A stretch of DNA of 63,971 bases from assembly GCA_030264375.1 (NCBI GenBank), contig JASCQW010000119.1:6553271-6617241 (forward strand), read 5' to 3'. The notes under the pieces are model-generated. The model made no database searches. It was not told the origin of the DNA and worked only from the letters and a program-made list of their open reading frames with translations. Positions 40 to 60,142 of this stretch are shown here, piece after piece (the first letter of the stretch is position 1; every line of letters begins with the position of its first letter). Both the position numbers and the translations under genes were made by a program. The stretch comes from Carcharhinus longimanus. Lineage: Eukaryota.

Positions 40-75
40 CTGCATCCTCCAAAAGACTTGTACACGCAAATAGTT
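40..75 (-). CDS. Micro-exon type A (36 nt), [12 protein letters not shown]
   Basis: gtttcag|AACTATTTGCGTGTACAAGTCTTTTGGAGGATGCAG|gtaaat. Confidence 0.75.
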
Positions 76-3000
76 CTGAAACCGAACAAGTTGAATGGTT
101 AGACATTTTTGTGCCAAAAGATTTTCTAGGCCCAAATCATCACCAGCTACTTCCTAAGTGGTATCCCTAGAGTAAAACGTCAAAAATGGAGTGTTCCTGA
201 AGACTTAACAATGTTCTGCATAATTTGTGACTCCTCAGTTACTGAAGCCACACATGTCCAAATGCAACATAACATGGACAATATAAAGACTTGGGCCGAC
301 AATGGAAGACAGCATACGAAAAAGTGTGTGGCAATGACCATCTCTAATAATGGGGGCCTAACAATCGTTTCCTGTCATTCAATCACATTGCCATCGCTAA
401 TCAAACTGTCCCTCCCCTGTACACGTACTTGGCCTTTTTTTTGACCAGAAGCACAACTGGACTGCTATACACATAAGTCGGCAGAAGGCTTGGAGTCCTG
501 CAACAACTAAATATCTTCCGATTCCTCTCACGTTGCTTAGAACGCAAAACACTGTTCCAGATGTAGCCTGACCAGTACTGTTGATCTTTGGTAACATGAC
601 TATTTGGTGCAATTAAGTATACATTATTTGCAGTTTATTTAAACGCACAGTTAGTTAAGAGTCTGCATTGGAACAGCAACTTCCTTTTCCAAATCAGTTG
701 CTTATGTGACTTATTTTATAGTATTGGCGTCGTTACAAATCTATGTGGATCCAAGCAAATCCGCAAGCAATTGATGTTGACGTAGCATAGGATGTGATGA
801 AGTTTGCATTTTTTTTGATGCGGGCCTGCTGCATTTCTCTGCACTTTCAACTTCGGGATGATCGACAATTCCTCATAACATAGACATGCGGTGTTCAGTT
901 ACAACATAGGAGATCTTAACAACATCAAGGAAAAAAGAACCAGCGAATGTCTTTGACGCTACCCGGAATATATTGACCACATACCCCCTCTATTATTGAT
1001 GCAGTATTATCAATGTATACCATCGACAAAATGCACGGCTGGACCTTATAAAGTGTCCTTCGACAGGGTTAGTCGGAACCCAGTATGACAGATAACGGCA
1101 ATGGCAATTGATATAGTTTGATTCCACTAGGTATAAGTCCCACTCGAAGACATACACCATCCGAATTTGAAATTATCTCAAGTGCCCTCGTTGTCGTTAG
1201 TCAAAGTCGCCTTGCTACTCCTGTCCAATTTGCACTGTAGGTATTCTTACATCAATTAGCCTACGGCACTTCAAGGATGACGCGCGCAAGAAGTTTTTCC
1301 AAGGACAATTAGAGAGGCGAAACACGTTTTGGCCAAGCCAGTGACTTACTAATCCCAAGGGAAAATAATTAAATTTAAATTGCAAGTAAAATTTTCAGCA
1401 AATGTGAGCTCAAAATTAAACGCCGTCTATAAGTTTCCTGAGCATTGCGTTCAACAAAAAAAAGTGTTAGTTGAGGGGTGGAGCGTAAATTATACATTCA
1501 TTATCCTTTATTTGTTTCTATGGGTCCAAGTAAAGAAAGTAATGCCCATAATGCAAAACTTCCTGCATTTGTTTTAATCATTGCCGCTTGTCCGTCACCC
1601 AGGCTCTTTCCACTCGCTCATATCTATTTTACATTTGGCCGTACTTGCACTATAGTGTTCAATTCTGGTTGCCAAACTGCCAGAAGAATNNNNNNNNNNN
1701 NNNNNNNNNNNNNNNNNNNNNNNNNNNNNNNNNNNNNNNNNNNNNNNNNNNNNNNNNNNNNNNNNNNNNNNNNNNNNNNNNNNNNNNNNNNNNNNNNNNC
1801 ATAAGAAGTAAAGGGTTTTAATTCAGTTGGGCAGCATGGTCGTTGCAGTCTTGGAATGCTGAAGAGCTTGTTCATGTGCTGAGTTTTTTTTTTGTACATT
1901 GTCCGCGTGTAACATTCTTTCTTTTTAAAAAATATGTCAGTTCTCTTTGTATCTTTCTGTTATAGATGAAACCTTCGCAGTCTAACCACTCTCAACGCCC
2001 TGGCTGCAGAAGCAATACTTACATTTCAGTTTTGACTTAATGTTAGATAGCGTGCATTTGCAGATCGGTTTATTTTGGAATTCTGGAGGATGTGCGTTAA
2101 ATTTTGTGGTGGTATTTTTGGTCCAATATTTCGTAAATGTAGAATAGAACGTAACTTTTAATCAGCAAAAGTCCTGCATTCAGAATTAAGAATTTGCCAT
2201 TTAATAGCTTTGTCCTATAATAAGTAGAAAAAAGAAAGTTGACACAACAGTCCGTCGAACGTTCGGATAGAAAACTCGGATCCGAACAATCGGATAGATT
2301 TATATCCGAACTTTTCCCACTTGATCAACATATGGTTTGTTTTCCTTTTACTGTTCCAAACATACCTATTAATCACAGATTTGTATAAATTCAGTTATCG
2401 AGAATGCAGAGAATTCGGGGCCAGGACGCCTACAACTTCGGAATCGTTTAGTGAACATGCTACATACCATTGATCTCGAATTTCCAGTCACAGTGAAAAT
2501 AACAAAATATCTCAGCATCGGCTTAACTTTATGTTGCAGAAGTTGGCTAACCTGGCTTCTCTCTGACCTGCATTTAATCCGCATCTCATGTAGGGAGACT
2601 AAATATTCTGAATATTCCTGTTATTTCTGCTTTTTTTTCTGACACAAGGCCCAACACACGGCCAGTATAGCATCGAAAAACCCGTTGCCAAAGACTTGCC
2701 GAGGAATGCCAACACACAATTTGGCTCCATAATGTATTATTGCACTGGCATGCTCGATTTCTGTTTTCTTCGTGGAAATCAAAATCCCCGTGAATACCAT
2801 CAGTTCAAACATATTAACCATGGTTTCAGTTTTGTTTTAATTGCTTTGCATAAAGGCAAATGCAGTTGTCATGTAATTGCATTTAAATTCGCTTACCTTT
2901 CTCTTTTGCGTTGTATTTGGCAAATGGGTAAGAGTAAATGGTAAACCGTTGATTGAGAAAGATATTGTGGCATTTCCCAATTAAAGTAATTTGTTGAGAA

Positions 3001-6000
3001 ATAATTACATATTATTTTAAAATTACAGCTCGACTTGCGCTAAAGTGTCAGATTATGCAAGCACACTTAAACATTCTGGTGTTAGCGTGAGTGGGCGAAC
3101 ACGGCCACTACGGACTCAGGGTCAGGTTCAACAGCGGTACAGCTTCATTTTAACGTCGACGGAGGTGCAGTCAGGGCATACAAACCGAAATGTCCCGAAA
3201 CCACTCTAAAGACCCGCCGCAATGGGCTACAGTTATACCTGAACTTGATACATTGTACAAATGCTAATGTTTTGTTTACAGTATTCGACTCTGACCATCC
3301 TGTTTTGATGTCTTCAAGTATTGTAAAAATGTTTTTAAATGTGTGTTAATCGTTTCTGTCTGATGGGTTTGTTAAAGGTCTAGAATCTCCGGGGTTTGAA
3401 CAATCGGTGTTTGACTAGTTTGTGGGGCCAGGGATGCTTCCTCAGTTATGCTAATATTTAGGTGTCTCCAAAGAGGGTTGCTTGATTAGATCAGAGATGC
3501 TGATTTGGTTGGATGGAGGTGTACTTTTTAATTTAGTTCCTGTAGGTGTCATCCTGTCCGGTTCCTTTTTGTGCCCTCATTTGCATTCTAAAAGCATGTC
3601 CTTGCCTGTTAGTCTGTGTCTGTTCCCTTGTGAACTTTTGTGGGGAGGCTCTGAGTGTAACTTTAGTCTGCTTCCATATTGTGTACCCAATTTCATAAAA
3701 AATGTTGTCCGATAACACTGGTGTATATTAGGGATAATTTATAATGTGCGGTGGCAGCATTTTGGTGTGATAATGCTGGTGCATCTTGCAAAAACCTTTC
3801 CTTGAATGCCATTCTTATTGAAGACAATATAAGCAAACACCGCACACAATATTTTTTAATTGTTTTCAAATTAGTTTAAAATAGCACATTTATTTAATAG
3901 CTGGCTTAGGCACATGTTGGATAAGTTATGTTCCAGCTACTTTTTGAGGTTGCAAATTTGAAACGCAAATATGTCAATGATTTCATGGATTTGAGAAATG
4001 TCCTTGATTGATGTATCCATGAGGACAGAAACGTAAAATCCACACAAATGCCGAAGAGAACATCTGGGTAATCGAGTCTGCGCAAACGTTCCGAAAGAGC
4101 ATATCACCCCTCCACAGCCGCCCACCTCCCCCCACCCCTCTTCGCGTAATCTCGTGCATTCGCCGTGTATAATTCATCTAATTGACGCATTTCTTTGGGG
4201 GGGTGGATAATAGCAAGAAGTGTTAATTCCCAAAGAAATCGGACAATGGGAGAGTGCAAACTCGAGACAGGCAATCACCCAAGACTCAATTCAAACCGAC
4301 AGCCTTGGAACCGAAAGGGAGTATTGTTTTTTTTTGCCATCGTGCTGGCGAAAATAATTAAACGTCTTGTACAAATGCTTTTGCAAATGACAGAGCACAG
4401 ATTTCTGACCTAAATTGTCTAAATCATGTTGAAATTTCGCAAAATCTGTAATACAGATAACAATTATTTTACATTTAATTGAAACATGCATGGACACATA
4501 AAACATATGAACCAGGGTAGACATTCGTCCCATCGAGAGTGCTTTGTCATTCAATGTGAACATTTAACTTAATTGCCTGATAACATGTTTCCCCATTAGC
4601 CGTTGAACATGTATGTCACAGAAACTATTTGAAACATTTTCATGAAAAAAAAGTCATCACAGCTATTTTTGTGCCAATGGGTGCTCCTGGTTTACTACAC
4701 TTTGGTTGAAGGCATTTCTCCTCACCGCTGTCATTTAAAGTAATGGTATGGAGTCTGGGTCTCCGAAAATTGGAGATACCGTTCCTGTATTACCTGTCCA
4801 GCCCAGTTACAATTACGCAGGTTTCTGTGAGATCCCACTGATGAATTCCAACTCAATCGAATGCAATCGCATCCAAGTCATTGACTGATTTTGCATTGGT
4901 ACTGCCATCCAAACATCAGCTTAGGACATCTTCAGTGCACTCCCTCGAAACAAATAACATCTTTCTTCAGATAAGAAAAACAAATGTGCAGAAAATGTTC
5001 CAAATAGGACCTCACGAATGTTCTGTATAATTCGAAAAAGACATGCTGCTCTGGTACTCGAAACTCTTGATTTAATGGCCAACATACCAATTGATTTCTA
5101 TACTCTGCTCGATCTCCAAAGATATGTGGGTTAGGTTGATTGGCCATGCTAAATCGCTCCTTAGTGTCCTGAGATGCGGAGGTTAGAGGAATTTGTGGTT
5201 AAATTTGTTGAGGTATGTGGGTAGGGTCTGGGCAGGATTGTGGTTGGTGCAGGCTCGATGTACCAAGTGGCCTCTTTCCGCACTGTAGGGTTTCTATGAT
5301 TGTATGATTCTATGACTTGCGTGCTTACATTCATTGGCTGCATTACGAGGGCACACAGGAACATTCTTGATCATATAATCCAGAATTTTCCTCACTTCGA
5401 ATGTCTTGCTGACCGATCTACGATTCCATTTTATTTTTTGTCTCTGCCTCCCTTTTTAATTATCTGGGAGCTTTTCGTTAACTATCCCAAATCCCTCTGA
5501 AGGGTTCTGGAGACCTAACATCTTGGGAAGTGACCGCCAATGCATCTGCTATCAATAAATCGTTATTTTCTTATATCGTGGTGGTGTAGTTTTCCAGGAC
5601 CTGGGGATTCCTCGGCTTCGATGCTCGCTATTCGTGGAGCAGAATTTCCACACTAATGCTATATTAACTCAACTCGTCCCCCTGAATCAATCCTGTGTTC
5701 CCAGCATTTCCCCTACGTTATGTCGGTTCCCATTTGTAATGACTGAAACAATGTATGCATTAATGCCATCAGAAATGTTTCTGACAGTGAAGGCTTATGC
5801 ATTATGCATCTGCATTATACATCTGTCTTATCCATTATTTTGTCTGTGTTTGCCTATATAAAACTTAACAATTATTTTTTTTATTTCCCTTAACCTTGCA
5901 GTCACACATTTATTCCCTTCTTAATTAATCTCTTAATCCACTTCAGCTACGCACTAATTTGTTCCAACCATCAGGTTGTGTTTAATTTCCCCTTGGTCAT

Positions 6001-9000
6001 TAGCCTTGTATTTTTCCTTTGATCTAATACCACCGCTCTTTTCCGTGTAATGCATGGCTTGATCTCCCTTTCCTTTTTCGTTTTGCTCCAGGGAGTAATA
6101 ATAATTCTTGCAGTCCACCAATGAGCCCTTTGAATGTTTTCACAGTACTCGTCTGATTCATCTTTTGTCACTATCTAAATTAGATTTCAGACACATGACC
6201 ATCAAAACATTTTGTCATTCCTTCTATTCCTTCAATTTACTTGCTCAAAGTCTTGAATATTTCTTGTTGAAGAATAAACAATATGAACATAGAAACATTC
6301 TAATGTAATTCTTACAAATGAAGTTATTCGTTCCATAAAAAAAAATCATGTCCGACGGATGATTTATTTGATATTTCAGTTTTGGACCACTTGATCTGTA
6401 GCTCCTTTACAGTCAGTAACAGGAAAATGTACAATGATTAATACAAAAATTGCTGATGACATGAATGCATACTTTGTTTCAGTCTTTACAAATGAGGACC
6501 AAGAATATTCGTTTGTTTCTGCAAATACGGATCAAATGCCCTTATCGCACTCCACATGTCAGGATTATTTTTCAATTGTCAATAAATTATGTTAATTATT
6601 GCTGGGTATAATTTGCACATTTAAGCAGCATATTTTAACGACAGATACCTTTATTTTTTTCTTTGAGATTTTTCTCTACCATGAGGTAAAAACAGAAATA
6701 TTGGAGAAGTCAAAATAGTTCCATTTAATAATTGTGTTTTCTTACAGTATAGCCAATGTAATGTACATTTGACTGTATGTAAAACATATACAAACACATT
6801 AGTTTCAATTACGCATAATGATTAACTGATGACAAGCGATTGTTGCCCATAATAATGTTGAAATCGGACTGGTCTCCTTTTCTGAACATTGATCTGAGAG
6901 TTATTCACTTAAGTCTAACACAACTGATTTTGGCTGCATACATGTGAGGAATATATAATCGAAGTTAAGACCAGACATACAATCACCCAGTTAAAGCTTA
7001 ATGAGAAACAGTTAAATATGCATTAATAATTGCAGCTTCAGATGTATTCATGTTTTAATTGCTGGGAATTCTGGCATCCGGGTCATAGCAAAATTTGCTT
7101 AAGTGCAATGCCAGGGTCTATTGCACAAAATGCGGCATTAATGAGTCTTGCATTAAAGTCGCACATGGTTTTGAGAGGCAACCGAAAGGAAGACGCAACC
7201 TGCGATCTTATGTTGCAAAATGAGATCCAATTGCGTTCGAAAAATGCCACAAAGGGAGCGGCACTGTTTCCATGGCCGACATTTGCTCCCCGTTATACAA
7301 TCAGCGCATATAATTCGATAATGGTCGAAATGCCATTTGCATAAATTTTGGAGTAATTGCTAGGTCTCCGTTGTAGAGATGAGGCAATTGCGTTTGCATT
7401 GTTGCTGCATTGGTTGCAAACTCATGTACGAGAACAAGTTGTTATAAATTGTGCCACGCATTTTCGCAACACATGCAAAGCTTCAGAATCTAGCCACAAT
7501 ATCTAAATTAATGCGTAATTTTCACAACCGAACTTTTGTCAACTGGCAGGAAACATTCACTCGTTGCAAATTGCATGCAGCATGATTGGAACAGTTATCA
7601 CTCACCTGCCTCAGTCAAAGCTTTTTGATAAACACCTATCTCTACAATNNNNNNNNNNAAAATCAAATCATGTCAAATTTTTGGTGCATTGAAATTCCAT
7701 GCATTCCCCTCTTGGAAATGCAGACGACAAACGAATGTTTCAAGCTCTTCAAATTCGGCATTCATTCACAACTTTATTGATTTGCAAGAAACGAAAAAAA
7801 GTCACAAATGTCAATCAGTCCCGCCACAAATTAGAAACAGAGACTTGTGGTATGAAAATAAACATGCATAATGTAAACGAATACTCATGTGGATATGTAT
7901 TTGTATGTTTCCGTTGTTATATTCATTGAGCTATTTCAAGGGGGCGCTCCTAACGCAAGCTTTGACTGCAAGCAACGTAGCTTAAGTGGGAAATGAGGAG
8001 GGAGGCTGCAGTTGCGAGGAACAAGAAATAAACTTTAAGTCGGGACACAAATGGAGATATATTTATGAAGACTATTCCTGTATTGGGATGCATGATTTCA
8101 TTGAGTTAATTAGTTTGACAAAAGTGTCTGGGATTTACAAAAACCCATAACTCCATCATCTTGAACATTCATGAACTTTTCTTGTTTAACTTCCTATTCT
8201 CCAGCATGTAGTATTCTATATTGTCCTTTCATACAGACACCATATTTATATTGCATGTTCGTTGTCGGAATTCATTATACATTTTTTAAACTCGTGATTA
8301 ATCATATTCGTACGAGAATCAGTTTCTTGCATATAATTGGAATGAACGATTGAAGAGCACGGGAGGAAGACATTTGTCAAAACTTGAACTTGACATCAAC
8401 CATATCCATCCTGCTCAACGGCACTTTCCAGCATTTGTGACGGAGACTGTGACAGAGCATGCACATTTTCAAGAGCCCTGTAATGTATTGTTTTCGCTGA
8501 GTTCTTCTGAACTTCAGATTTGATTCTTATTACATTTGACGGCAAAACATGTCGGAGTTTCTCCGCACCTCACGTCATAACATAAATATGAGTGTTGATT
8601 ACAGAATCTACTACCCAACGGCATGGGGTGAAAGCTCCCACTCTCTCATGACCCCAAACAATTATACACAATTTAATAAGTCCAAAGTTTAATTATGACT
8701 GTCATAATAATACTTGAATGAAGTTCTAGTGATAATCATCTAGTGGCTGCACTCTGGCGCCTATTCGGCTACACTGGGAGATAATTTAGCATGACCAATG
8801 CAACGAACCAGCATGTATTTCAGAGTGTGATAGAAAACCAAAGCAGATGGACGGAACACACGCAGACACGTGGGAAAACGCGGAGGGAGCGCACAGACAA
8901 TGTTCAAAGCCGGGATTGAGACCCATATTTCGGGCACTGTGAGATAGCACTGCAAAACACTTTGCCACCGTGTCACCCTTAGACTTGCAGCGGTCCTGAC

Positions 9001-48000: not shown

Positions 48001-48517
48001 TAGGACTAGCAAATCTAACATAACTGAATGCAGGGTTCGGTTTACAAACAACCACAATATCTGTTTATTTTCTTCTGCCGCCAGAAATGCGTTTAGACTT
48101 TTTGAAAACTGCTTAGAAGAAACAGGTATAGGAAATGAATAGAGAAGGAAGCATATCTTACTCAGTTCGTTTAAGCCTCTTTGGAAGATGTTGGGATCTG
48201 CAATGCCGAGAGAGATGAAAATCATCATTATGTCATCTGATAAAGGATTAATTTAGGATATTGCACAGGTTTTGCAAAACTTCCATCAATATAATAGCTC
48301 TCGTACTCCAAGGGTGAAAAAATATATATTTTCATCATTCACCTCAAAGTCAAGCAGCGATCACTTGAGACATGCATGCTGCCATCAACAGTTATTTTTC
48401 AACTATTTCAAAGATGTGTGACACACCTCACATAATGTCCAATAATTTCACAGGCAACCAGAAATAACCCACATTAATTGAAATTAAGGAAATGTAGGCT
48501 AAGAATAATTGCTAAAC

Positions 48518-48578
<61 letters not shown>

Positions 48579-51500: not shown

Positions 51501-54500
51501 TATCTGCAGGGTTTAGCTTATGCATTTAATTTTCGAATCGGAAAACAATTTGTCACCTAAATCACTTAAATATTTCTTGCAGCCGGATAGCTCTGAAAAA
51601 AAAAACACACACACTATGAACTTAGGACACCCCAAAACTATTTAGAACAATTTACACTGTCATCGCTGTTACACTGTCAGAACGTCTTTGAACACAGTTT
51701 GTTTAATATGATCAGAAACATCAATCTAGGAGCACGGATCCCACATGGATTGGACTAATTCAACAATGCGTCCTCCCAAGACTTCCTCAATGACTATTCG
51801 GGCGACGAAATAATGTTGGTTGTTTCCTTGACAAGCACAATCATATGGAAAGCGAATGAAATACAAATTATTACATGAAGATTACTGGATGTTCAATGCA
51901 AACAAAAAATCANNNNNNNNNNNNNNNNNNNNNNNNNNNNNNNNNNNNNNNNNNNNNNNNNNNNNNNNNNNNNNNNNNNNNNNNNNNNNNNNNNNNNNNN
52001 NNNNNNNNNNNNCGTAGCCCAACCGATCAGGAGGCCGTTAATATTTTGTTGAAAATTGTTCAAGTATTACTTCATTAACATAAGTCCAGGTGCAGATCTA
52101 TGTAACTATACTCTAATCCCCGATCTATTTGCGTATTAGACCAGCCTAAATGTGATTCGTTTCAGCTACATCCTTTGATGGTGAAACATTACGCCACATG
52201 GACATCGATTATTCCATCGCTTCTGCGTTCGTATTTATTGGTTATTATTAGTTCTGAACCTCACCACGATAAGAAATAATATGTCTCTACCAACTCAATA
52301 AATTCGTAAAGGTACCTGGTTCAACTTAGTGAACTTGCCAGTTTATTCAACTCTCAATCATCACCGTACCACCGCACATCCTACCGCACCCCCTACTCGT
52401 GGACGTTAACCAAACTTCGCCTGATCACTCGTTCCCTGATACGTCGAAGCTAACTGTGACATTGCTCATTGGAACCTTTACTTCATAATTAAAATAATCG
52501 AAATGTGTTTTGCACAAAACCCGATATATGTTCATTCCTATTCGATATAATTGAATCTTTGTTAACCTGTGATATAAATTTAGATATTCTAAGAAAGATA
52601 TTTCGCAATTCGTTGCCTTTGCCAATGCATGCTTTTTTTTTAGCAGTGTTCCAAGCCATAATTCTAATTCATAACAATATTTAACATTTAATAATATTTA
52701 AAGTGGTAATACCTGAGCAGTAGAACTTCACACCTTCTGCAACTGGCAACAAATGTCATTTGCTCTTACACGAGCATGCTGTCTTGAAGGAATCTGAAAA
52801 CTTCATGTAAGTCGTCCATGTGGGCTATATTTGCTGACCGTGTTCGTCCATCTGTTTTGTTACACATCTTCAAAGGTATTTGGATGATATTTGTGCGAAT
52901 AGAATCGATCAATACAACTTCTGCAGTTCAGATAAGCCCATTCACTCCATTGAATCGCTACCAGCTCCCTGGCAGTACATCTACCACATGCCCACCACCC
53001 ATTCTATCCCGTTTATGCAATATTCAGTCTTGAGTTAACCGTTTTAATGACAGTCAAAACACTTATCTGACAGACAATGAAAGACCATGGAATGAGGCAA
53101 TCAATACACTGGCTTGCAAAGATTAACTACAACATCTTTCAAAGATTCCTCATGATCAATTTCAAGGGATTACAATGACCAGAATAGTAACAGGAAGAAA
53201 AAGAAATAATGTTGCTAGATAATTATGACAGAGACTGGTTGTTGGACAGAATTCACTCGACAGCTATCAGTATCAATAAGCAGCTATAATGCACAGGTCA
53301 AAGTGTAATGGGGTGCCCTTTTCTTCCCTGGACGAGTACAGCTAAAATGATGATTCATTTGCACGGTTAAATGCAAATAAACCTACTTACAGACACTTTA
53401 TCTACCACTTTTAGGATTAGATTCCTCTGTCACTACCAAAATGTCAGTGCATAGGATCGACCTAATGGACTAATAAGCCTCCCCATGCCTACTGACAGAG
53501 CAAGTTCCAAAGGCCGTCTCACAGCTTACATGACGGGAAATATAAAAAAAAACATTGATGGGGATACTACTCACTGCAAATTCAAATACAACAGCAACGA
53601 TTTTGAGGCCTGTTAGCACATTATGATCACGACTAAATTTTATGCTATTCTGTGAATACCTAGCAGCATATGATGTACTGCAAGTGTTCATGAATTTGTC
53701 TCACCCTCACATTATCAAGGGTTGTTCCAAAAAATGCTGATTTTCCAGCCAACTTCAAAGTGCAGGAAACAAGAATGGTAATAAGTAATTCGGAAATAAA
53801 GCGTGTCAGGCAAAAATCCCGATTGAAAATATGATGGATCTCCAAAAATCAACGTACGTTCTCAGAAGTGATGGACTGAGAGGGACAAGAAATAATTTCC
53901 CTGTGTGAGCATAAGGATGGTAACTGAGCTGAATCTGAAATTAGTATCAGACAAACATGATGATACTAATTTAACTGAATTCAAGTCTGAATAAATAAAA
54001 TACAGATTAGAATTTAAAACAAGGTACTAAATAGAGAGTAATTGCGCAAAGTTACAACGGGGTAACAAAAAAGGAAGGTACACAATGCAAGCTTTATGAA
54101 TGAAATATACATCAGTTTGCTAAATAGATGGCTAATTTGGGGTACAGAAAATCATTTAAACATCGGAAGTGTCAAACAAAACTGAGGCAAAGAGGTAGAA
54201 TTGCTAATGGTGATAACAAAGAAAGATTTAAAACACTAGGTACTGAGAACTTGATTGAAAAAAAACAAAACACATACGTTATCAGTGATAAACGTTGAAG
54301 GCTACCAAATGTTTGACGAAATAAATGGACAAACACTGCATTAAAAACAAATCTGGAACGGGGCGATGTGTTGTACAGAAACGTCTAATTCTACTTTGTC
54401 ACACGCTTCATTCAAAGTTGTTAGATGCTGTTTTCTGTAATTGCAGACCAGTAGCATAAATCATATTGGTGAAAAAAAAAACTGTCTGAAAGCGTAACTC

Positions 54501-57500
54501 AGTGCAATGTCATGGTCCCCACGCAAATATTTGGTGACTGCTTAGGCACAAGAAACACATTTCTAGTGGGACGATTTTGTTCAATTAAGTTATTTGAGGT
54601 CTTCAACGAGGTAACGTCATGGTTGATGAATGTGTTAGGAGCGACGTATTGTATTCTCCGGCAAAACATTCTAAAATTCTAAGGCACAGGGGTAGGTCGT
54701 GGAAAGAAGATGCACTCAATATTGAAGCTGGCATGGCAGGTTTAGAAAAAAAATACGCAATATTTCAGAACATGACCATTAAAAGTAGATTTTAAACAGC
54801 AATTTTAAAATCTATGTTGAAAACATTTGCGATCACAACTTGAACGTAACACCCAAATCTGGCCAATTCGTTGTATGAAGCACGCAGAACGATTGGATGG
54901 TTTAGAAACAATTCAAAAATACAGTTCCAGCAATGTGAAAAATGTACTATTTGGATCATTTTGAGATGGTAAAATTATGAAGGAAATATGCAAAGTTATT
55001 CAATGCTAAGAAAGCAGAACAAAGAAAATAGGGTAAGCTTTCTATCGACGTTCGGATCAATACTAGAAACTTTCAGGTGCAAAGTGATTTTCAGAACAAT
55101 TAGACACTTCGTGAGTGTAAGAAACTTTTGCAGCACAAGTGTTGACGTTCTAGAATGTCTTGTCTAAGCTTATGTTGGAATCAGAATTCAGGACCTTCAG
55201 AAATCAATTGAACAATTAGGTAAAAAGAACAAAATGTGGGCTGCGAATAGCTGGGCGGTTTTGACAGCGCAAATTACAGGGACGGAATAATCGATCGGTA
55301 TATTGAAACTGTTCAATGGCTTTGATCTGTTAACTCTATGCTCCTTACGGAAAAGCATCATGTTTTATCTGAGATGTCAGCGTCTCTGAAATGGTCTGAA
55401 GTGCAATGGAACCTCCTGTTCTACAACATCCCTCCACTCCTCCCTCAAAATTTGGTGTTTCCATGTGATAACGTATGTTAATCGACTATACTTCCGCATT
55501 CAACTTTTACGGAGGAGTTAGAATGCTACAGTGGAAACGCAGATAATAAAGATTCTTGTCATTGCTATACATATGCCAGAATATAACTAGCATTGATATG
55601 AATAGGACATGAACCAACTGTGGAAACATAAATTCAATTCAGTTTTCATGTTGCTAAGAAGGAATAGAAAACACTTTTTACCTTTAGCTCTTAAATTCAG
55701 CGCCTCTTCTGTGACAATTTAAAACAATTCAAGTTGACAAAAAATAGTGACATAGATTCCGAAGCGGAGAATTGAGGTTTTTGCTGTATGTTTTGCAAAT
55801 GTACGAGATATATTTACAGGCAAGAAATAATACACGAACGGGAGAGTGTAAACAATCCACTGGCAGGCGAAACAATCAGTGACAATAAGAACATAACATA
55901 AGAACATAAGAAGTAGGAGTAGGAGTAGGCCATCTAGCCCTTCGAGCCTGCCCCGCTATTCAATAAGATCATGGCTGATCTGAAGTGGCTCAGTTCCACT
56001 TTCCCGCTTTCTCCCCATAANNNNNNNNNNNNNNNNNNNNNNNNNNNNNNNNNNNNNNNNNNNNNNNNNNNNNNNNNNNNNNNNNNNNNNNNNNNNNNNN
56101 NNNNNNNNNNNNNNNNNNNNCCCCCAACTCCATGCCCCCTAACCTTCTGAAGCAACCTTTTGTGCGGGCCCTTATCAAAAGCCTTCTGAAATCGAGAAAT
56201 ACTACATCCACCGGTCCCCCTCTGTCTACCGCACTAGTCACACCCTCATAGAATTCCAATAAATTCGTCAAAGAATGGCAGCGCAGGTTGTGCCTTCATA
56301 TCATTGCAAATGTTGGACACAAATGTCTAGTGACAATAAAACAACATAGGTCGGACACGTGAATTTAAATAGATAGTAAGTTCACAGAATACTGGTGCTT
56401 TTAAGTATTGCCATCACTGAAATAAATCTTTCCAGGTAGAGAAAGAGGCAACTTCTTGTCCTGAACAAAGAATTACATTTTTCTGTCATTCTAATGTTGA
56501 CGAGACCGACTGGACTAGCGAAATTCTTTGTACTTTTGTTTTCGCCAATGAAATACATTTTTGAGCTGATACAAATTCCATCGCCTCCACATGCGTTAAA
56601 TAACATCTACAATTTTGGTTAAGCTGGTATGTCTGTTGAAACTTGAAAGATGGATTTCATAACTCAGAAATCGTTGAGCTCTGTAAGTTGTCGAATTTGC
56701 CATTGCCTTTTGGAACCAAAATTAATAATACAAATTGTTACATTGCACGTGTTTCGTTATGATTTTTTTTAAATGCCGATTATCATTTTCATATTTCCCA
56801 TGCCTCGCAGCTGACATATTCTCCTCTTCCACCTTCCTCCCAGCCCTTGTATTTTTTCCCCCCCATTACGTTTCAATTTCCCCCTCAATGTGAGCTACAT
56901 TGCAAGATAAATGCACCGGCTGGAGAAATGTTCCCACAATTAGGAATTCAGACTTATTTCCCAGAGACAAACATTCATGGCACTCTTTCATTCCAATGGC
57001 GATAAACAGATTTAACTGCACACTGCGTTTCAATTGGTGTGGCAGAAACCTCGAAAGATACAAACAGAAAATGTTCTGTCAGTACAGGTCACTGAACTTC
57101 CTTGGCACTGTATATTTGTTTTCATTTATTTCCCACTAAGCAGCATGTCATTTCTACGAGGAGCATGCAGAAAACAAGATGGAAGTTAACGTAAACATAC
57201 GAAGATGTCCATGTTTCATTGAAATACAATGTAGGTCAGATATTCCGAGACAAGTTATTGCTGTATTTTCTCAAATTAACTGCATTGCGTGTACGAATTA
57301 CTTACTTAACATTTCTAAGGATTCTTTGCATTTTGCGTGTTCTAGAATGCCAAAACAAATCACTTATACACCTCATTTTAAACTGAAATCGTAAATTTCC
57401 ATTATGACGTAGAGTTGCATGAGACCAGATTATGGTCTTGCATTGGCTGAACTTTAATGGCGTGTAAGCTCTTCCATTTGTGGAGTTTCAATAATGATCG

Positions 57501-60142
57501 GCAGAACTCACAATGACCACACCAGTGCAGATCCGAAATTATTGGAATTCCCATTGTTCCATCAATTTGAATTATGATGTGCTGTGTGAACAAGATTACC
57601 TCCTGATTATATAAAGCATTGCATCTGTGACGACTTTGATAAAATAGTTTGCAACAATTTGCGTTATCCATCTCCACATACAGACTACAGTGTGCTTGTT
57701 ACAAGTGAAAATGAAGAGATAATGTAACTGCCAAAGTGTTTGAAACGTGGTGTGGTATCGCTTTGTTCACTATTTTCGTGAAAGATATTCAGCACAGATT
57801 GCATAGCATTAAAAGGAAAACGGCAAATCACAGACAGAATTTGGGCACATTAGAACAACTTTCTGCATAGCACCTTTGGTATAAAAACTGCCATAAAAAA
57901 GACGGGAGGTTCAACTATTGTTCCATGATCATTTGTGCCACGGTCGATTATATGATTACTAAATCGTGGTTGATGACAATATAGAAACACATAGTAATCA
58001 TCATGTATATACTTAAAGGGAATACATGTTTTGTGACTGGTTTTTGGAAATCAGATGCTTATGAGGCGATATAAATTAACAAACGAACATTTTGAAGTGC
58101 AATGTCTAACGGAGAGTTAAACAGAGGCTGAAACGTTTCTGCTCGATTAATTGTCCTTAATATTTGAACGAATGCTGAAGGAACAAGACTCTTCTTTTGT
58201 CCTCCTTTTTGAACATTTTGAGGAATATTGACATCTGTCGTTGTCTGCCAAAATAATTAGCGAACAGGCTCGATATTATGAGGCGTATTATGATGTTAGC
58301 CTTGGTGAAAACCATTTTACTTTTAGCATCAATGTAAGCATCATGTTTCCGTACCTGCTCTAGTTCTATTGATCCGTTTGGAATTTTTTATGGTAACAAA
58401 CAGCTTCTAGAAACACAGTTACACGATTTTAAAACGAATTAACAGATCCCATGCTATTTTAATACACGTAAACGTGACAATGCATCTATATTAACTGATA
58501 ACTGTCCCAATTCTATCCAATGACGGTTATTTTCCAAAATCTTCGGACTCTGAAATAGTTCCTACTGATTGGAAGATATCTAAGGTCAGCCCGGTATTCA
58601 AAAACTGAGGGAGAGAGAAAACAGTGAACTATAGACCAGTGAGCCTAACGTCAGTATTGGGAAAGTTGGATTATCATGGACTTTGTAAGTAGGTATTTGG
58701 AACTCTGTGGCATAATGAGTCAAATTCAGCATGGATTTACAAAAGGGAAATTTTGTTTGACGATTCGATTGAAATTCTTTGATCGTGCAACTGGTTGAGT
58801 TGATCTAGTGGATGTGGTTTATTTAGACTTTCAGAAGGCTTTCGACAAAGTCTCACACAACAGATTACTACGGAGACTCACAGCGCCAGAATTCGACATC
58901 GGGCTTTGGTCACAGTCTGTGTAGAGCCTGCACGTTCTCTTAATGCCTGCGCGGCATTCCTCCGGCTGCTTGGTTTCTTTTCACAGTCGGAATGATGCGC
59001 TGTCTAGGTGCATTGCTCATGTTAATTGTTCCCTCGTTCTACCAGAGTAGTCACCGGAGTGTGACGACTGTTTGATTTTCATAGGATCTTCATTGCAGTG
59101 TTAATGCAAGCCTTCTTGTGATACGAATGAATAAACTTAAAAAGTTTAATCCCTTTGGGCAGAAAAATAGAGCGAGACCTGCCTCTTGACTCTCAGTCAG
59201 CAGTCTGCAGTGGAACTCTTAAACTGCAGGAAACCTTGGTACGAGAGGGTGAGACAAAAATCCTTGCCTTTTACAGACCCTTTGATAGTGACATCATAGT
59301 CCCTGACTGCAATTTCCAGGAACAATTGTAACACTGATCCAATAAAAATAATGTATCTTTGTGTTTTCTCCCTGCAAGTTCATCTACAGTCGTTTACATG
59401 ATTGCTTTGTTTCCTGACAAACAACTCAATTAAAGCCTTCTCTGAAACCTCAGGTGACAAACCTAAAAGTAACAAAAATAAGCATTTCAGTAATTAGGCC
59501 CAATTTCTCCTCCGTAGAATCCACACTTGTGCTCTAGACTGCAGGCAATTGACACTGTAATCAATATTGAATAATAAGATAAACACTTCGTAGGAAACAT
59601 GACCCAAACGAATTTCTTGAAGGCACAGTAGCCCTTCAATAGATAAAGCTTTGACCATCAGTTTTAGGTAAAAGTTTTGATTGCCAGCTCCACATTTGGC
59701 AAGCCTTTTTACACAGAACGCAAACTTAAAACACAAATTAATTGACTGGTCGGATGGACTGGGTTTTGAAAAGTGGGCATTTTTTGGTTGATTAACCAAA
59801 AACATGAATTTCGCCCTTTCATTTGTACATGTGAATCAATTTCCTGTAATTATTTCTTTTATACTTCCTGAGATGGGTGTTTCTGTGCGTTTTACTGTGT
59901 AATCTGTTGGACAGCATCTCGGAAAATGATTTTCCATCTCAATATCACTAGTGCAATTTAACCTAGGTGTTGATCCCCAATTATGTGGTGGGACGTATTG
60001 TCGTAAAATACCTCGCCTGAGGAAAACATGCTACCACGGCACAATAGTTTCTATGCAAACCTTGATATGTGCACATAGAATGCATTCAAAGTTAACTGAT
60101 GTCAAAAGTAATTACCTTGTTCGTTTGATTTCAATTTTTTTT
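40..60142 (-). CDS. Partial multi-micro-exon gene encoding a long 21-aa-repeat coiled coil (both termini not found in window)
   Basis: 21 exons of exactly 36 or 27 nt in near-strict alternation, all phase 1-1, joining without stops: [222 protein letters not shown]. Confidence 0.85.
200..1375 (+). mobile_element. Decayed L2/CR1-group LINE, RT C-terminal fragments and 3' tail
   Basis: [17 protein letters not shown] resembles the LINE motif MQQDLDNIQAWADKW. The 3' tail aggacaattagagaggcg...ccaagccagtgac resembles the tail of the SINE at about 44020. Confidence 0.55.
2897..2923 (-). CDS. Micro-exon type B (27 nt) with non-canonical acceptor, VAKYNAKEK
   Basis: tttactcttacccat|TTGCCAAATACAACGCAAAAGAGAAAG|gtaagc. 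Strong donor, correct slot and length, but CAT instead of CAG. Confidence 0.55.
4410..4445 (-). CDS. Micro-exon type A (36 nt), [12 protein letters not shown]
   Basis: tctgtattacag|ATTTTGCGAAATTTCAACATGATTTAGACAATTTAG|gtcaga. Confidence 0.85.
5105..5315 (+). mobile_element. HE1-like V-SINE, 3' half
   Basis: V-domain-like tccaaagatatgtgggttaggttgattggccatgctaaat plus CR1-type tail ending ctatgattgtatgattctatga. Confidence 0.75.
6649..6675 (-). CDS. Micro-exon type B (27 nt), EKNLKEKNK
   Basis: cctcatggtag|AGAAAAATCTCAAAGAAAAAAATAAAG|gtatct. Confidence 0.8.
7060..7496. mobile_element. Possible decayed non-autonomous DNA transposon (Harbinger-type TIRs)
   Basis: Imperfect inverted ends gctgggaattctg ... 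cagaatctagcc. Confidence 0.3.
7606..7641 (-). CDS. Micro-exon type A (36 nt), [12 protein letters not shown]
   Basis: attgtag|AGATAGGTGTTTATCAAAAAGCTTTGACTGAGGCAG|gtgagt (the upstream tract falls in an N gap). Confidence 0.8.
8762..8975 (-). mobile_element. tRNA-derived V-SINE (HE1-like)
   Basis: Reverse strand shows a tRNA-like head (cacggtggcaaagtgttttgcagtgctatctcacagtgcc...) and the core gcattggtcatgctaaattatctcc. Confidence 0.75.
9269..9362. mobile_element. Short MITE-like element
   Basis: Imperfect TIRs gaccggaaattctcgcc / ggcggtaagcttccggc, GC-rich relative to flanks. Confidence 0.4.
9829..10170 (+). mobile_element. HE1-like V-SINE
   Basis: ggcggcataatggatagcactactgcctcacagccaggga head and cccaagatgtgcagctttggtggattggccatgc core. 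Confidence 0.75.
10546..10882 (-). mobile_element. HE1-like V-SINE
   Basis: Reverse strand: atgatggcacagtggttagcaccgctgcctcacagctgcagatatccggctcgattcccggcc head, V core and CR1-type tail. Confidence 0.8.
11653..11679 (-). CDS. Micro-exon type B (27 nt), EDKLKEKEK
   Basis: gtctcctgagcag|AGGACAAACTGAAGGAAAAAGAGAAAG|gtacat. Confidence 0.85.
13387..13422 (-). CDS. Micro-exon type A (36 nt), [12 protein letters not shown]
   Basis: cttttgcttgccag|AGCTGATGAAATTTCAGGACGATTTAGAAGATTCAG|gtgaga. Confidence 0.85.
13560..14455 (+). mobile_element. Decayed CR1 LINE 3' portion
   Basis: Degenerate RT C-terminus (ttatatacggtatttgtaaggcaacacctccagtactgcgtgcagttt, cf. LYKALVRPHLEYCVQF) and 3' UTR. Confidence 0.65.
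14600..16980 (+). mobile_element. Decayed CR1 LINE: ORF1 SGNH/GDSL esterase region then ORF2 endonuclease region
   Basis: [10 protein letters not shown]...[39 protein letters not shown] matches the CR1 ORF1 esterase pattern. VPITETCL...FRKDR matches the APE endonuclease. Interrupted by a SINE. Confidence 0.75.
15558..15900 (-). mobile_element. HE1-like V-SINE inserted in CR1
   Basis: Reverse strand: gggcggcgcagtggcacagcggttaccgttgttgcctcacagcgacagggacccgaattcaattcc, V core, CR1 tail. Confidence 0.8.
16981..18110 (+). mobile_element. Two CR1 3' fragments
   Basis: [10 protein letters not shown]...[19 protein letters not shown]...[25 protein letters not shown]; second fragment [12 protein letters not shown]...FPMVG. 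Confidence 0.8.
18735..20160 (-). mobile_element. Decayed CR1 LINE RT region
   Basis: Reverse strand [26 protein letters not shown]...VTGCL and WNSL motifs. Confidence 0.6.
19138..19215 (-). mobile_element. Penelope pLTR remnant with degenerate hammerhead motif
   Basis: Reverse: CAC-CTGATGA-AGGGGCAGCACTCC-GGAAGCTC-GTG; homologous to 62480-62575 and 42881-42978. Confidence 0.6.
21451..21477 (-). CDS. Micro-exon type B (27 nt), EGKLKAKGQ
   Basis: ttattttcaacag|AAGGAAAACTGAAAGCAAAAGGTCAAG|gtaact. Confidence 0.85.
22400..23150 (-). mobile_element. Possible highly decayed Penelope-like element fragment
   Basis: Reverse translation ...KHEFCMQH...[20 protein letters not shown] loosely resembles PLE C-termini; weak. 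Confidence 0.25.
23330..23605 (+). mobile_element. V-SINE (second tail type)
   Basis: gtcactgtctgtgtggagtctgcaggttctc...cagtccaaagatgtgcaagttaggtgtattggacatgctgaattctc; tail gcaagcctacttgtgacgaataaac. Confidence 0.8.
24635..24670 (-). CDS. Micro-exon type A (36 nt), [12 protein letters not shown]
   Basis: ttttgtctgttacag|AAGAGAAAAGGCTGTTTGAATACGCAAACGAATTAG|gtgagg. Confidence 0.8.
   Translation of the reverse strand, partial: KRKGCLNTQTN
25589..25615 (-). CDS. Micro-exon type B (27 nt), EEKLKRKGK
   Basis: cgcttacaacag|AGGAAAAGCTGAAAAGAAAAGGGAAAG|gtattt. Confidence 0.85.
26183..26218 (-). CDS. Micro-exon type A (36 nt), [12 protein letters not shown]
   Basis: tctaaatttcag|ATTTAACAAAATGTCAAGATACTTTGGAAGATCTAG|gttggg. 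Confidence 0.85.
27240..27520 (+). mobile_element. CR1 3' fragment
   Basis: gggaagttgtttccactggcgggtgaatctagaactaggaggcatggtctc...aggaacttcttg...tgtggaattc. Confidence 0.75.
27957..27983 (-). CDS. Micro-exon type B (27 nt), EDKVKVKTN
   Basis: cttcacctttacag|AAGATAAAGTGAAAGTGAAAACCAATG|gtaagt. Confidence 0.85.
28172..28207 (-). CDS. Micro-exon type A (36 nt), [12 protein letters not shown]
   Basis: atttttgttccag|ACGTAGCTAAATATACAGAGTTGCTGAAGGTGTTAG|gtaaga. Confidence 0.85.
28322..30380 (-). mobile_element. CR1 LINE ORF2 (RT) fragment, frameshifted
   Basis: [31 protein letters not shown]...[26 protein letters not shown]...[17 protein letters not shown]. Confidence 0.9.
30420..31620. repeat. 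TG-rich low-complexity region with (GT)n/(GC)n microsatellite core at about 30689-30735
   Basis: gtgtgcgtgtgtgtgtgtgtgtgtgtgtacgcgcgcgcgcgtgcgtg and about 1.2 kb of degenerate TG dinucleotides. Confidence 0.8.
32319..32441. mobile_element. Short MITE (Harbinger-type TIRs)
   Basis: TIRs gcaggaattttaccacct / aggcggtaaatctctggc. Confidence 0.5.
33046..33072 (-). CDS. Micro-exon type B (27 nt), EDKLKSKNA
   Basis: tttgttcctgaacag|AGGATAAATTGAAATCGAAGAACGCAG|gtaagc. Confidence 0.85.
35791..35826 (-). CDS. Micro-exon type A (36 nt), [12 protein letters not shown]
   Basis: gttttccctcaatttag|ATCTAGCAACAAACCAGGAAACTATAGATGACTTAG|gtaggt. Confidence 0.85.
38093..38390 (+). mobile_element. V-SINE
   Basis: cttagcactgctgcctcacagcaccaggaacatggattcgatt head; gcattggccatgctgaattctccctcag core; gtgttaatgtaagcagacttgtgacac tail. 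Confidence 0.8.
38715..38990 (+). mobile_element. CR1 3' fragment
   Basis: acgaggggtcacgtgctaagggtgaggggggagaagt...tttttcacatagagggtcgtgggggtatggaatgaact. Confidence 0.75.
39060..39233 (+). repeat. Direct repeat copy 1 (about 174 bp; copy 2 at 44670-44844)
   Basis: gtcggtccaccttgttgtc...ctagctgtgcagatac occurs twice, about 12 mismatches by hand count. Confidence 0.9.
39560..40520 (+). pseudogene. HARBI1-like DDE transposase, frameshifted
   Basis: [22 protein letters not shown]...; [20 protein letters not shown]; WLMMPLRRP...[25 protein letters not shown]...[12 protein letters not shown]; acidic tail. Confidence 0.85.
42881..43114. mobile_element. Penelope-derived palindromic insertion with hammerhead ribozyme motifs
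   Basis: Inverted arms 42881-42978 / 42982-43076; degenerate TSD ttcagtagcct (42870-42880) / tccagtatcct (43115-43125). Confidence 0.8.
42936..42975 (-). ncRNA. Minimal type I hammerhead ribozyme motif (PLE-type), intact core
   Basis: ATTCAC-CTGATGA-AGGG-ACTAA-CCCT-GAAA-GCTA-GTGAGT: CUGAUGA, stem II, GAAA, NUH (CUA), and stem I TCAC/GTGA. Confidence 0.65.
43820..44090 (+). mobile_element. SINE 3' portion with a conserved central domain (MetaSINE/MER131-like from memory) and L2-type tail
   Basis: ttgtaaagacccatctgattcactaatgtcctttagggaaggaaat...ccttacccgatctgacctacatg; tail caattagggatgggcaacaa...aataaagaaaaaaa. Confidence 0.6.
44130..44660 (+). mobile_element. LINE endonuclease-region fragment
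   Basis: [11 protein letters not shown] / [12 protein letters not shown] / HYYRAKWD motifs (APE endonuclease C-terminus). Confidence 0.65.
44670..44844 (+). repeat. Direct repeat copy 2, running into a V-SINE (about 44797-45135)
   Basis: Matches 39060-39233; followed by tgtgggtgctccggtttcctgccacaccccaaaaatgtg and the tail gggtcgaagggcctgtttcccgtgctgt. Confidence 0.85.
46000..46260 (-). mobile_element. Gypsy-type LTR retrotransposon gag zinc-knuckle relic
   Basis: [32 protein letters not shown]: two degenerate CX2CX4HX4C knuckles, followed by MMVKLELNG (protease-start-like). Confidence 0.55.
47355..47381 (-). CDS. Micro-exon type B (27 nt), RSKLKMKDI
   Basis: tttctctccatag|GATCGAAACTGAAAATGAAAGACATAG|gtaatt. 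Confidence 0.85.
48162..48197 (-). CDS. Micro-exon type A (36 nt), [12 protein letters not shown]
   Basis: ctctctcggcattgcag|ATCCCAACATCTTCCAAAGAGGCTTAAACGAACTGA|gtaaga. Confidence 0.8.
48518..48578. repeat. (GATA)n microsatellite
   Basis: Perfect agat repeats, about 15 units. Confidence 0.95.
48620..49275. repeat. Composite minisatellite: three units of (GGAT)n plus a 120-140 bp unique segment
   Basis: gattttgcatcatggtaac...tttatttatgga...tgtgaatacaa...aagggcctt...gacaacaaattgtaacatttgg recurs three times. Confidence 0.9.
50130..51230 (+). mobile_element. CR1 RT and 3' end, decayed
   Basis: [55 protein letters not shown]; (ctatga) tail. Confidence 0.85.
51557..51592 (-). CDS. Micro-exon type A (36 nt), [12 protein letters not shown]
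   Basis: gttttttttttcag|AGCTATCCGGCTGCAAGAAATATTTAAGTGATTTAG|gtgaca. Confidence 0.85.
53000..55330 (+). mobile_element. Very old CR1-like LINE remnant
   Basis: A-rich strand bias with scattered degenerate EN/RT-like segments. Confidence 0.35.
55682..55708 (-). CDS. Micro-exon type B (27 nt), KEALNLRAK
   Basis: aaattgtcacag|AAGAGGCGCTGAATTTAAGAGCTAAAG|gtaaaa. Confidence 0.8.
55888..56270 (-). mobile_element. CR1 fragment (RT plus 3' tail, gap inside)
   Basis: [27 protein letters not shown]; tail ataagaacataacataagaacataagaagtaggag. Confidence 0.85.
57306..57341 (-). CDS. Micro-exon type A (36 nt), [12 protein letters not shown]
   Basis: tttgttttggcattctag|AACACGCAAAATGCAAAGAATCCTTAGAAATGTTAA|gtaagt. 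Confidence 0.85.
58550..58870 (+). mobile_element. CR1 RT fragment
   Basis: [43 protein letters not shown]. Confidence 0.9.
58875..59140 (+). mobile_element. V-SINE
   Basis: ctcacagcgccag...gtctgtgtagagcctgcacgttctc...cttcattgcagtgttaatgcaagcc tail. Confidence 0.75.
60116..60142 (-). CDS. Micro-exon type B (27 nt), EKKLKSNEQ
   Basis: ctctgttgcag|AAAAAAAATTGAAATCAAACGAACAAG|gtaatt. Confidence 0.85.

Follow-up and report, generated by a model that had tools for sequence, protein, structure and literature searches.

A candidate micro-exon gene for a long coiled-coil rod with a terminal B30.2 domain in Carcharhinus longimanus

The minus strand of a 63,971-nt stretch of the Carcharhinus longimanus genome (G000:C119:6553271-6617241, hereafter the window, to whose start all + and - kb coordinates refer) carries 11 exon candidates of 36 nt (A) and 10 of 27 nt (B), and we regard these micro-exons as almost certainly real. 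The window is likely a slice, less than a tenth, of a gene that we estimate from the DNA at 700-840 kb. With moderate confidence, we favor the reading that the 21 window candidates, the surrounding micro-exon array and a downstream B30.2 exon splice into one gene, whose predicted product is a soluble, dimeric rod of coiled coil with 1,300 or more residues and B30.2 heads.

Micro-exons of the window

Profile scoring separated from the background all 21 micro-exons that the initial annotation had proposed, over the span that it gave and with an AG acceptor in 20 of 21. They are given here in transcript order, in a list that we reconstructed from the sequence.

60116..60142, minus strand: B, 27-nt phase-1 micro-exon; profile and splice model; first in transcript order
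57306..57341, minus strand: A, 36-nt phase-1 micro-exon; profile and splice model
55682..55708, minus strand: B, 27-nt micro-exon; profile and splice model
51557..51592, minus strand: A, 36-nt micro-exon; a weaker internal donor would yield 27 nt
48162..48197, minus strand: A, 36-nt micro-exon; preceded by another A, the sole alternation break in the window
47355..47381, minus strand: B, 27-nt micro-exon; acceptor weak
35791..35826, minus strand: A, 36-nt micro-exon; profile and splice model
33046..33072, minus strand: B, 27-nt micro-exon; profile and splice model
28172..28207, minus strand: A, 36-nt micro-exon; profile and splice model
27957..27983, minus strand: B, 27-nt micro-exon; profile and splice model
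26183..26218, minus strand: A, 36-nt micro-exon; profile and splice model
25589..25615, minus strand: B, 27-nt micro-exon; peptide match strong, splice sites weak; not recovered by the splice-only model
24635..24670, minus strand: A, 36-nt micro-exon; splice sites strong, peptide divergent; an in-frame NAGNAG-type alternative acceptor would give 33 nt
21451..21477, minus strand: B, 27-nt micro-exon; profile and splice model
13387..13422, minus strand: A, 36-nt micro-exon; profile and splice model
11653..11679, minus strand: B, 27-nt micro-exon; profile and splice model
7606..7641, minus strand: A, 36-nt micro-exon; N at 7649-7658 hides the polypyrimidine tract
6649..6675, minus strand: B, 27-nt micro-exon; profile and splice model
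4410..4445, minus strand: A, 36-nt micro-exon; profile and splice model
2897..2923, minus strand: B-like 27-nt segment; good donor; acceptor CCAT, with AT replacing AG
40..75, minus strand: A, 36-nt micro-exon; last in transcript order within the window

Joined in silico, these exons generated the expected 666 nt, or 221 residues, with 0 stops in the phase-1 frame compared to 34 and 11 in the other two. The segment at 2897-2923 is likely a dead or skipped exon (the frame survives its skipping), a polymorphism or a base error. Alternation of A and B holds within the window, where 19 of 20 junctions switch type compared to 10.5 in shuffles (p 7e-5) and the one break falls between A51557 and A48162; gene-wide it is genuine yet loose, with 86 of 120 junctions switching against 60.3 expected and 34 that do not alternate. 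We considered 49331-49357 as the B exon missing at the break; its acceptor is strong, but its donor is weak and the B motif is absent, and we reject it as unproven. The intron at the break also contains an AGAT/GGAT microsatellite cluster (48518-49152).

Other intronic sequence in the window includes LINE-like fragments (16965-17357, 28239-29421 and 55934-56295), with a reverse transcriptase match at 29023-29421 that falls below our cut-off (Pfam E 2.8e-6), and a GC-rich block (39200-44000, 52%) that contains short frames without a Pfam match, one motif of which resembles a PIF/Harbinger transposase. Tandem Repeats Finder returned only short intronic arrays from the window. Contigs of a second organism, approximately 5% divergent (about 1,000 differences), span much of the window between 20.5 and 36.5 kb, and none of 40 differences inspected was informative for the exons. 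Two sequencing runs gave no real cover of the B30.2 exon, and run X1, possibly the source sample itself, agrees with the pieces compared at 0-1 differences.

Stop-free AG-27/36-GT matches, taken bare, abound on both strands (149, 117, 103 and 122), indicating that splice strength and peptide likeness carry the signal and that length alone does not. To avoid circularity, we trained splice matrices on 96 exons that lie outside the window. On the minus strand of the window, these gave 13 matches at 27 nt and 10 at 36 nt, with at most 6 for each other length between 15 and 60 nt; the plus-strand counts were 0 and 1. Of the minus-strand matches 21 are stop-free, whereas 150 dinucleotide shuffles averaged 1.95 and never exceeded 6; splice sites alone recovered 18 of the 21 window exons. 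In the held-out region from +165 to +500 kb, there were 28 matches at 27 nt and 17 at 36 nt versus a mean of 2.02 for other lengths. Phase-1 stops interrupt only 3 of 117 splice-selected candidates, part of which belonged to the training set; the remaining two frames have stops in 72 and 57 of them, and 64 of 162 controls contain one.

Counts among the window exons bear out the hydrophobic module pattern that had been proposed: position 2 is L/I/V/F in 8 of 11, position 5 is C/F/Y/L in 10 of 11, position 9 is L/I in 10 of 11, position 12 is L in 8 of 11, position 16 is L in 8 of 10, and position 19 is K in all 10. The same pattern recurs across 113 exons of the array. After the alternation break, hydrophobicity has a period of 3.50 (power 16.7 versus a maximum of 11.7 in 300 shuffles), while over all 221 window residues, among which there is one Pro, the periodicity power of 12.1 equals the shuffle maximum. 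Third codon positions are the least alike among exons (0.38 and 0.51 versus 0.44-0.50 and 0.61-0.66). Together, the period and the codon positions support the central proposal of the initial annotation, namely that the micro-exons form a hidden gene whose product is a long coiled coil of heptads. Its further proposal, growth by tandem duplication, is supported in part: mean identity between exons is 0.42 versus 0.29-0.31 when shuffled, but flanking introns share little beyond repeats and show no clear homology between modules. Judged from exon likeness, the duplications would be old and may have been tandem.

From the window to the gene

The micro-exon array runs on beyond both window ends on the minus strand: it starts at about +480 kb, possibly as far out as +619 kb, and reaches -223 kb. 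A combined splice and coding score identified at least 131 micro-exons (64 of 27 nt, 57 of 36 nt, 6 of 21 nt and 4 other; 1,336 residues) on this strand and 0 on the plus strand, a number that is a floor given N at 124,340 of 924,000 bases; a looser score gave 180 minus-strand exons versus 8 on the plus strand. The median intron is 4.1 kb. Upstream of +495 kb, at the 5' end of the array, exon type shifts to 21 nt, with six candidates reaching +618865. The last of these is readable as an ATG exon, and the candidate start (+618845..618875, near C119:7172145) has a strong donor. A second micro-exon array begins near +700 kb on the plus strand, head to head with the minus-strand gene, and the candidate ATG exon and this paralogue would, by their positions, bound the gene's 5' end. 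The second array (L074 onward, about +690 to +950 kb) contains exon candidates of 111 and 57 nt, then of 27/36 nt, then of 21 nt, and at +689785 there is a candidate ATG exon with a loose likeness to the beginning of homologue model P0030.

At the 3' end, the last 27-nt candidate (-223475..-223449) is followed by a phase-1 acceptor and an intact frame of 170 residues (-224860..-224351) that matches SPRY (Pfam E 6.9e-12); the exon occupies C119:6328410-6328921 on the contig. The best PDB matches of this B30.2 domain are TRIM58, the best single match, and the B30.2 domains of BTN3A3 and BTN3A1, at E of about 1e-15. It is the sole B30.2 in 1.26 Mb, and the array contains neither a second B30.2 nor a start. 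The locus thus has heptad repeats followed by a C-terminal B30.2, as butyrophilins do, and a coiled coil with PRY-SPRY, as TRIMs do; order, strand and phase suggest that the two parts are joined. Readings of the array as a C-type lectin neck, a collagen or a tandem repeat were dropped once the B30.2 exon was found. Homologous proteins searched against the array with tblastn matched the B30.2 exon alone, as expected for micro-exons. A genome-wide PRY search, in which the best 150 of 171 candidates were scored, placed none of the 129 matches listed on contig C119. In an alignment to 6j0g, Ser occupies the position of the His in the W-H-Y motif, the column of BTN3A1 H351. Because H351 is described as the phosphoantigen residue in the pocket of the BTN3A1 B30.2 domain (PMC7348870, in excerpt), a phosphoantigen-sensor function is unlikely for the shark domain.

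Exons for other domains were sought around the array with our own profiles, for which 15 Ig and 56 RING segments were used. The Ig profile found no match upstream of the array in the 1.26 Mb, which include 27,670 N at +540 to +700 kb, and it did detect a V-set exon downstream, which serves as a positive control. Over the same 1.26 Mb, a region that offers no positive control for this search, the RING/B-box profile gave no match at E 0.05 (best E 1.9 and 1.3). Scans for hydrophobic exons encoding a signal peptide or transmembrane (TM) segment returned weak candidates only, for example +672122..672199. Past the B30.2 exon, about 279 kb before the window start, lies a separate V-set Ig gene (L038:564-1097, minus strand; Pfam E 3.5e-12) with a weak PVRIG-type match and a TM-like hydrophobic exon candidate near -283653..-283534 on the same strand. 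Between it and the B30.2 exon is an unrelated single-exon rhodopsin-family 7TM frame (L036:8507-9430, plus strand; Pfam E 1e-13).

Relatives of the gene

The genome contains six paralogous B30.2 exons with 38-58% identity, five on contig C119 and one on C81, and all six have 27/36-nt candidates upstream. At the short C81 paralogue, the micro-exons match one catshark and one ray RefSeq protein collinearly and reach residue 22 of the former, which ties these annotated proteins to the 27/36-nt exon type. We found no Ig match within 120 kb of it. This paralogue (L143-L141) also has four near-identical 36-nt exons in succession, a recent local expansion. The region of C81 at about 85-102 Mb, which contains one family member, is dense in PRY matches and has several V-set matches among the best 150 of 928 V-set candidates scored; it is possibly an MHC-linked TRIM/BTN region.

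Homologues were sought among 1.84 billion representatives as single-domain B30.2 relatives. The closest are models from skate, catshark, electric ray, basking shark and chimaera that are named TRIM-like, A33-like or nuclear-pore anchor-like, with TRIM39-, TRIM58-, TRIM69- and A33-like among the RefSeq names. SPRY was the sole family above cut-off in seven of seven homologue models and in two of two more, a weak PRY appeared in one model, and none of the nine scanned models contained an Ig, RING or B-box family; the TRIM-like names presumably follow the SPRY match alone. Word-based homologue searches gave 0, 2 and 6 matches, with one family member among the 6. Five models, whose names are automatic, belong to the family as follows.

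XP_042192744.1, named nuclear-pore anchor-like: family B30.2 clade; coiled coil and SPRY only; 9/12-residue steps
XP_038671249.1 and XP_069775385.1, named A33-like: family B30.2 clade; coiled coil and SPRY only; 9/12-residue steps
XP_038672308.1, named TRIM39-like: family B30.2 clade; coiled coil and SPRY only; 9/12-residue steps
XP_055510696.1, named TRIM69-like: family clade through cluster representative P0004; coiled coil and SPRY only; 9/12-residue steps

Differences between models of the same protein often match exon lengths. Two models of a 1,697-aa chimaera protein differ at 14 places, eight of which are clean indels of 9 or 12 residues, and nine isoform pairs contain four internal 9-residue indels, one corresponding to the exon just before B30.2. 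RNA-seq usually underlies isoform sets of this kind. Most homologues in RefSeq have 175-460 aa, and there are also homologue models of 945 and 1,697 aa. The models may lack part of their 5' end, and that of P0007 starts with LINE-derived sequence; P0030 and P0151 begin with a short run of hydrophobic residues. For P0030, whose model skips exons, the analysis of one stretch did not recover a heptad period (peak 2.34).

In a quick tree, the 15 B30.2 rows of the family formed one branch (SH-aLRT 100) apart from Ig- and RING-bearing proteins, although these rows were picked by score, which favors their clustering. The tree used 62 of 159 rows (15 family, 17 Ig-motif and 30 of 42 RING-motif), omitting unlabelled rows and isoforms, and did not place the family nearer to butyrophilins or to TRIMs. 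The shark gene has both marks of this family, a B30.2 of the divergent clade and 27/36-nt phase-1 exons upstream. A literature search by title or abstract start, mostly of papers outside subscription, found no description of a chondrichthyan coil-B30.2 family. A table of shark skin-mucus proteins includes one A33-like accession, a possible family member (PMC10707392, in excerpt).

Discussion

The array resembles the chicken BG genes and a BG-derived zipper protein, in which, according to excerpts of PMC5938342, PMC4046983 and PMC8813856, a long coil is likewise encoded by many tiny split-codon exons, with the register running across exon borders, in a multigene cluster. BG genes have 27-37 exons of 21 nt together with IgV and TM exons and are described in those excerpts without B30.2. 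In contrast, the shark gene is built from 27+36-nt modules in at least 131 exons, of which 121 are 27 or 36 nt and six are 21 nt; it ends in B30.2, and no Ig match was found for it, with 27,670 N lying upstream. Butyrophilins (BTN3A1, BTN3A3 and BTN2A1) share the order of heptads followed by B30.2 (PMC8813856, in excerpt), the domain in which the shark exon matches them at E of about 1e-15. However, they have IgV-IgC, a TM segment and few heptads, compared to about 190 heptads, Ser in the H351 column and no extracellular IgV and IgC match in the shark gene, whose upstream DNA has 27,670 N between +540 and +700 kb. PRY-SPRY TRIMs (TRIM58, TRIM7, TRIM21 and pyrin) also combine a coiled coil with a C-terminal B30.2, but the shark gene has no RING/B-box match, and its coil is built from micro-exons and far longer. 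Given no match to the Ig domains of butyrophilins and BG and none to the RING of TRIMs, we file the gene under none of them. It would work like a BG or butyrophilin tail (PMC5938342, PMC4046983, PMC8813856 and PMC12841164, in excerpt).

Among other explanations, the gene may be a membrane-anchored butyrophilin/BG-like receptor whose signal, Ig and TM exons lie in masked or unrecognized upstream DNA, making the array a giant cytoplasmic tail. We consider this unlikely. The six 21-nt single-heptad exons at the 5' end are of the BG-tail type (PMC5938342, in excerpt), heptads followed by B30.2 make a butyrophilin tail (PMC8813856, in excerpt), the 27,670 upstream N could hide an Ig or membrane exon, and P0030 and P0151 have hydrophobic N-termini. 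Nevertheless, the profile that detects the neighboring V-set exon finds no Ig upstream, all nine scanned homologue models lack an Ig family, the micro-exons of the short C81 paralogue map almost to the start of its RefSeq orthologue, and the B30.2 domains of the family do not cluster with those of Ig-bearing proteins. A TRIM E3 ligase whose coiled coil had been lengthened enormously would account for TRIM58 as the best single PDB match and for relatives named TRIM39-, TRIM58-, TRIM69- and A33-like; the missing RING/B-box match, both in 1.26 Mb and in nine homologue models, makes this extremely unlikely.

Other readings concern whether the array makes a full-length protein at all. The array could be a cassette-exon pool, or several transcription units, from which short subsets join B30.2 while the full 1,500-residue protein is rarely or never made. 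This is consistent with the predominance of RefSeq homologues of 175-460 aa, isoforms that differ by single exons, the in-frame skippability of every exon and the frequent truncation of BG transcripts by intron read-through (PMC5938342, in excerpt), but homologue models of 945 and 1,697 aa, splice sites and frame kept along the whole array, and the lack of a second B30.2 or start inside it render the idea quite improbable. That the locus is a decaying or unexpressed relic is very unlikely: although one window exon has lost its AG and 3 of 117 candidates contain stops, the B30.2 frame is intact, third codon positions are the least conserved, and strong splice sites and the frame persist in more than 130 exons while their introns share no detectable homology, indicating long selection. 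Chance AG..GT matches in intronic DNA, common as bare matches are on both strands, can be virtually dismissed, as shuffle and opposite-strand controls refute them and the excess, present also in held-out DNA, is specific to strand, length and frame.

In the single-gene reading that we favor, every exon is of symmetric phase 1 and a multiple of 3, such that exons could be gained, lost or skipped without frameshift. Each 36+27 pair would add exactly three heptads with the register kept, and 36+36 or 27+27 junctions would shift the register locally. The sequence pattern suggests that two chains pair in parallel, with a positions at 2, 9 and 16 and d positions at 5, 12 and 19, forming a Leu-rich a/d core in which every third d position holds Cys or an aromatic residue and another holds an invariant Lys. 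At a coiled-coil rise of 0.15 nm per residue, the rod would be about 200 nm long, displaying two B30.2 domains at one end, and its length could be varied by exon gain and skipping. The B30.2 domains may bind a protein partner and the rod may bind cytoskeleton or membranes, making a putative cytosolic tether or scaffold. Enterophilin-1, which we take to be a far shorter mammalian protein with a cytosolic extended leucine zipper and B30.2, has a layout that presumably matches this soluble rod, a lead only. It has been linked to SNX1 and receptor trafficking (PMC13749957, in excerpt). By analogy with the BG-derived zipper protein, which affects actin-myosin (PMC8813856, in excerpt), a tether or scaffold role in the cytosol appears most likely.

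We tentatively suggest that cartilaginous fishes have a receptor-less gene family of the butyrophilin/BG-tail type. Its members would use as many as about 170 symmetric 27/36-nt micro-exons, spread over 0.7-0.85 Mb, to encode a cytosolic rod of at least 200 nm that has a B30.2 domain of a distinct clade as its cap, and the gain and skipping of exons would determine both length and register; the family is possibly a relic of the module behind BG tails, butyrophilin tails and zipper proteins. The parts are already known, and the novelty lies in their scale, in the module of 9+12 residues and in the apparent absence of Ig, TM and RING. Two features known apart would here be joined, the tiny-exon coil of BG type and the B30.2 of butyrophilins and TRIMs, at several times the BG exon count. 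If true, these would be among the most micro-exon-rich gene types in vertebrates, with at least seven family genes in this genome that ORF- and homology-based annotation splits into mislabelled fragments (TRIM-like, A33-like and myosin-like). The gene would offer a testable system for the splicing of more than 130 consecutive micro-exons across introns of several kilobases, and the family would bear on the origin of BG and butyrophilin tails in early jawed vertebrates.
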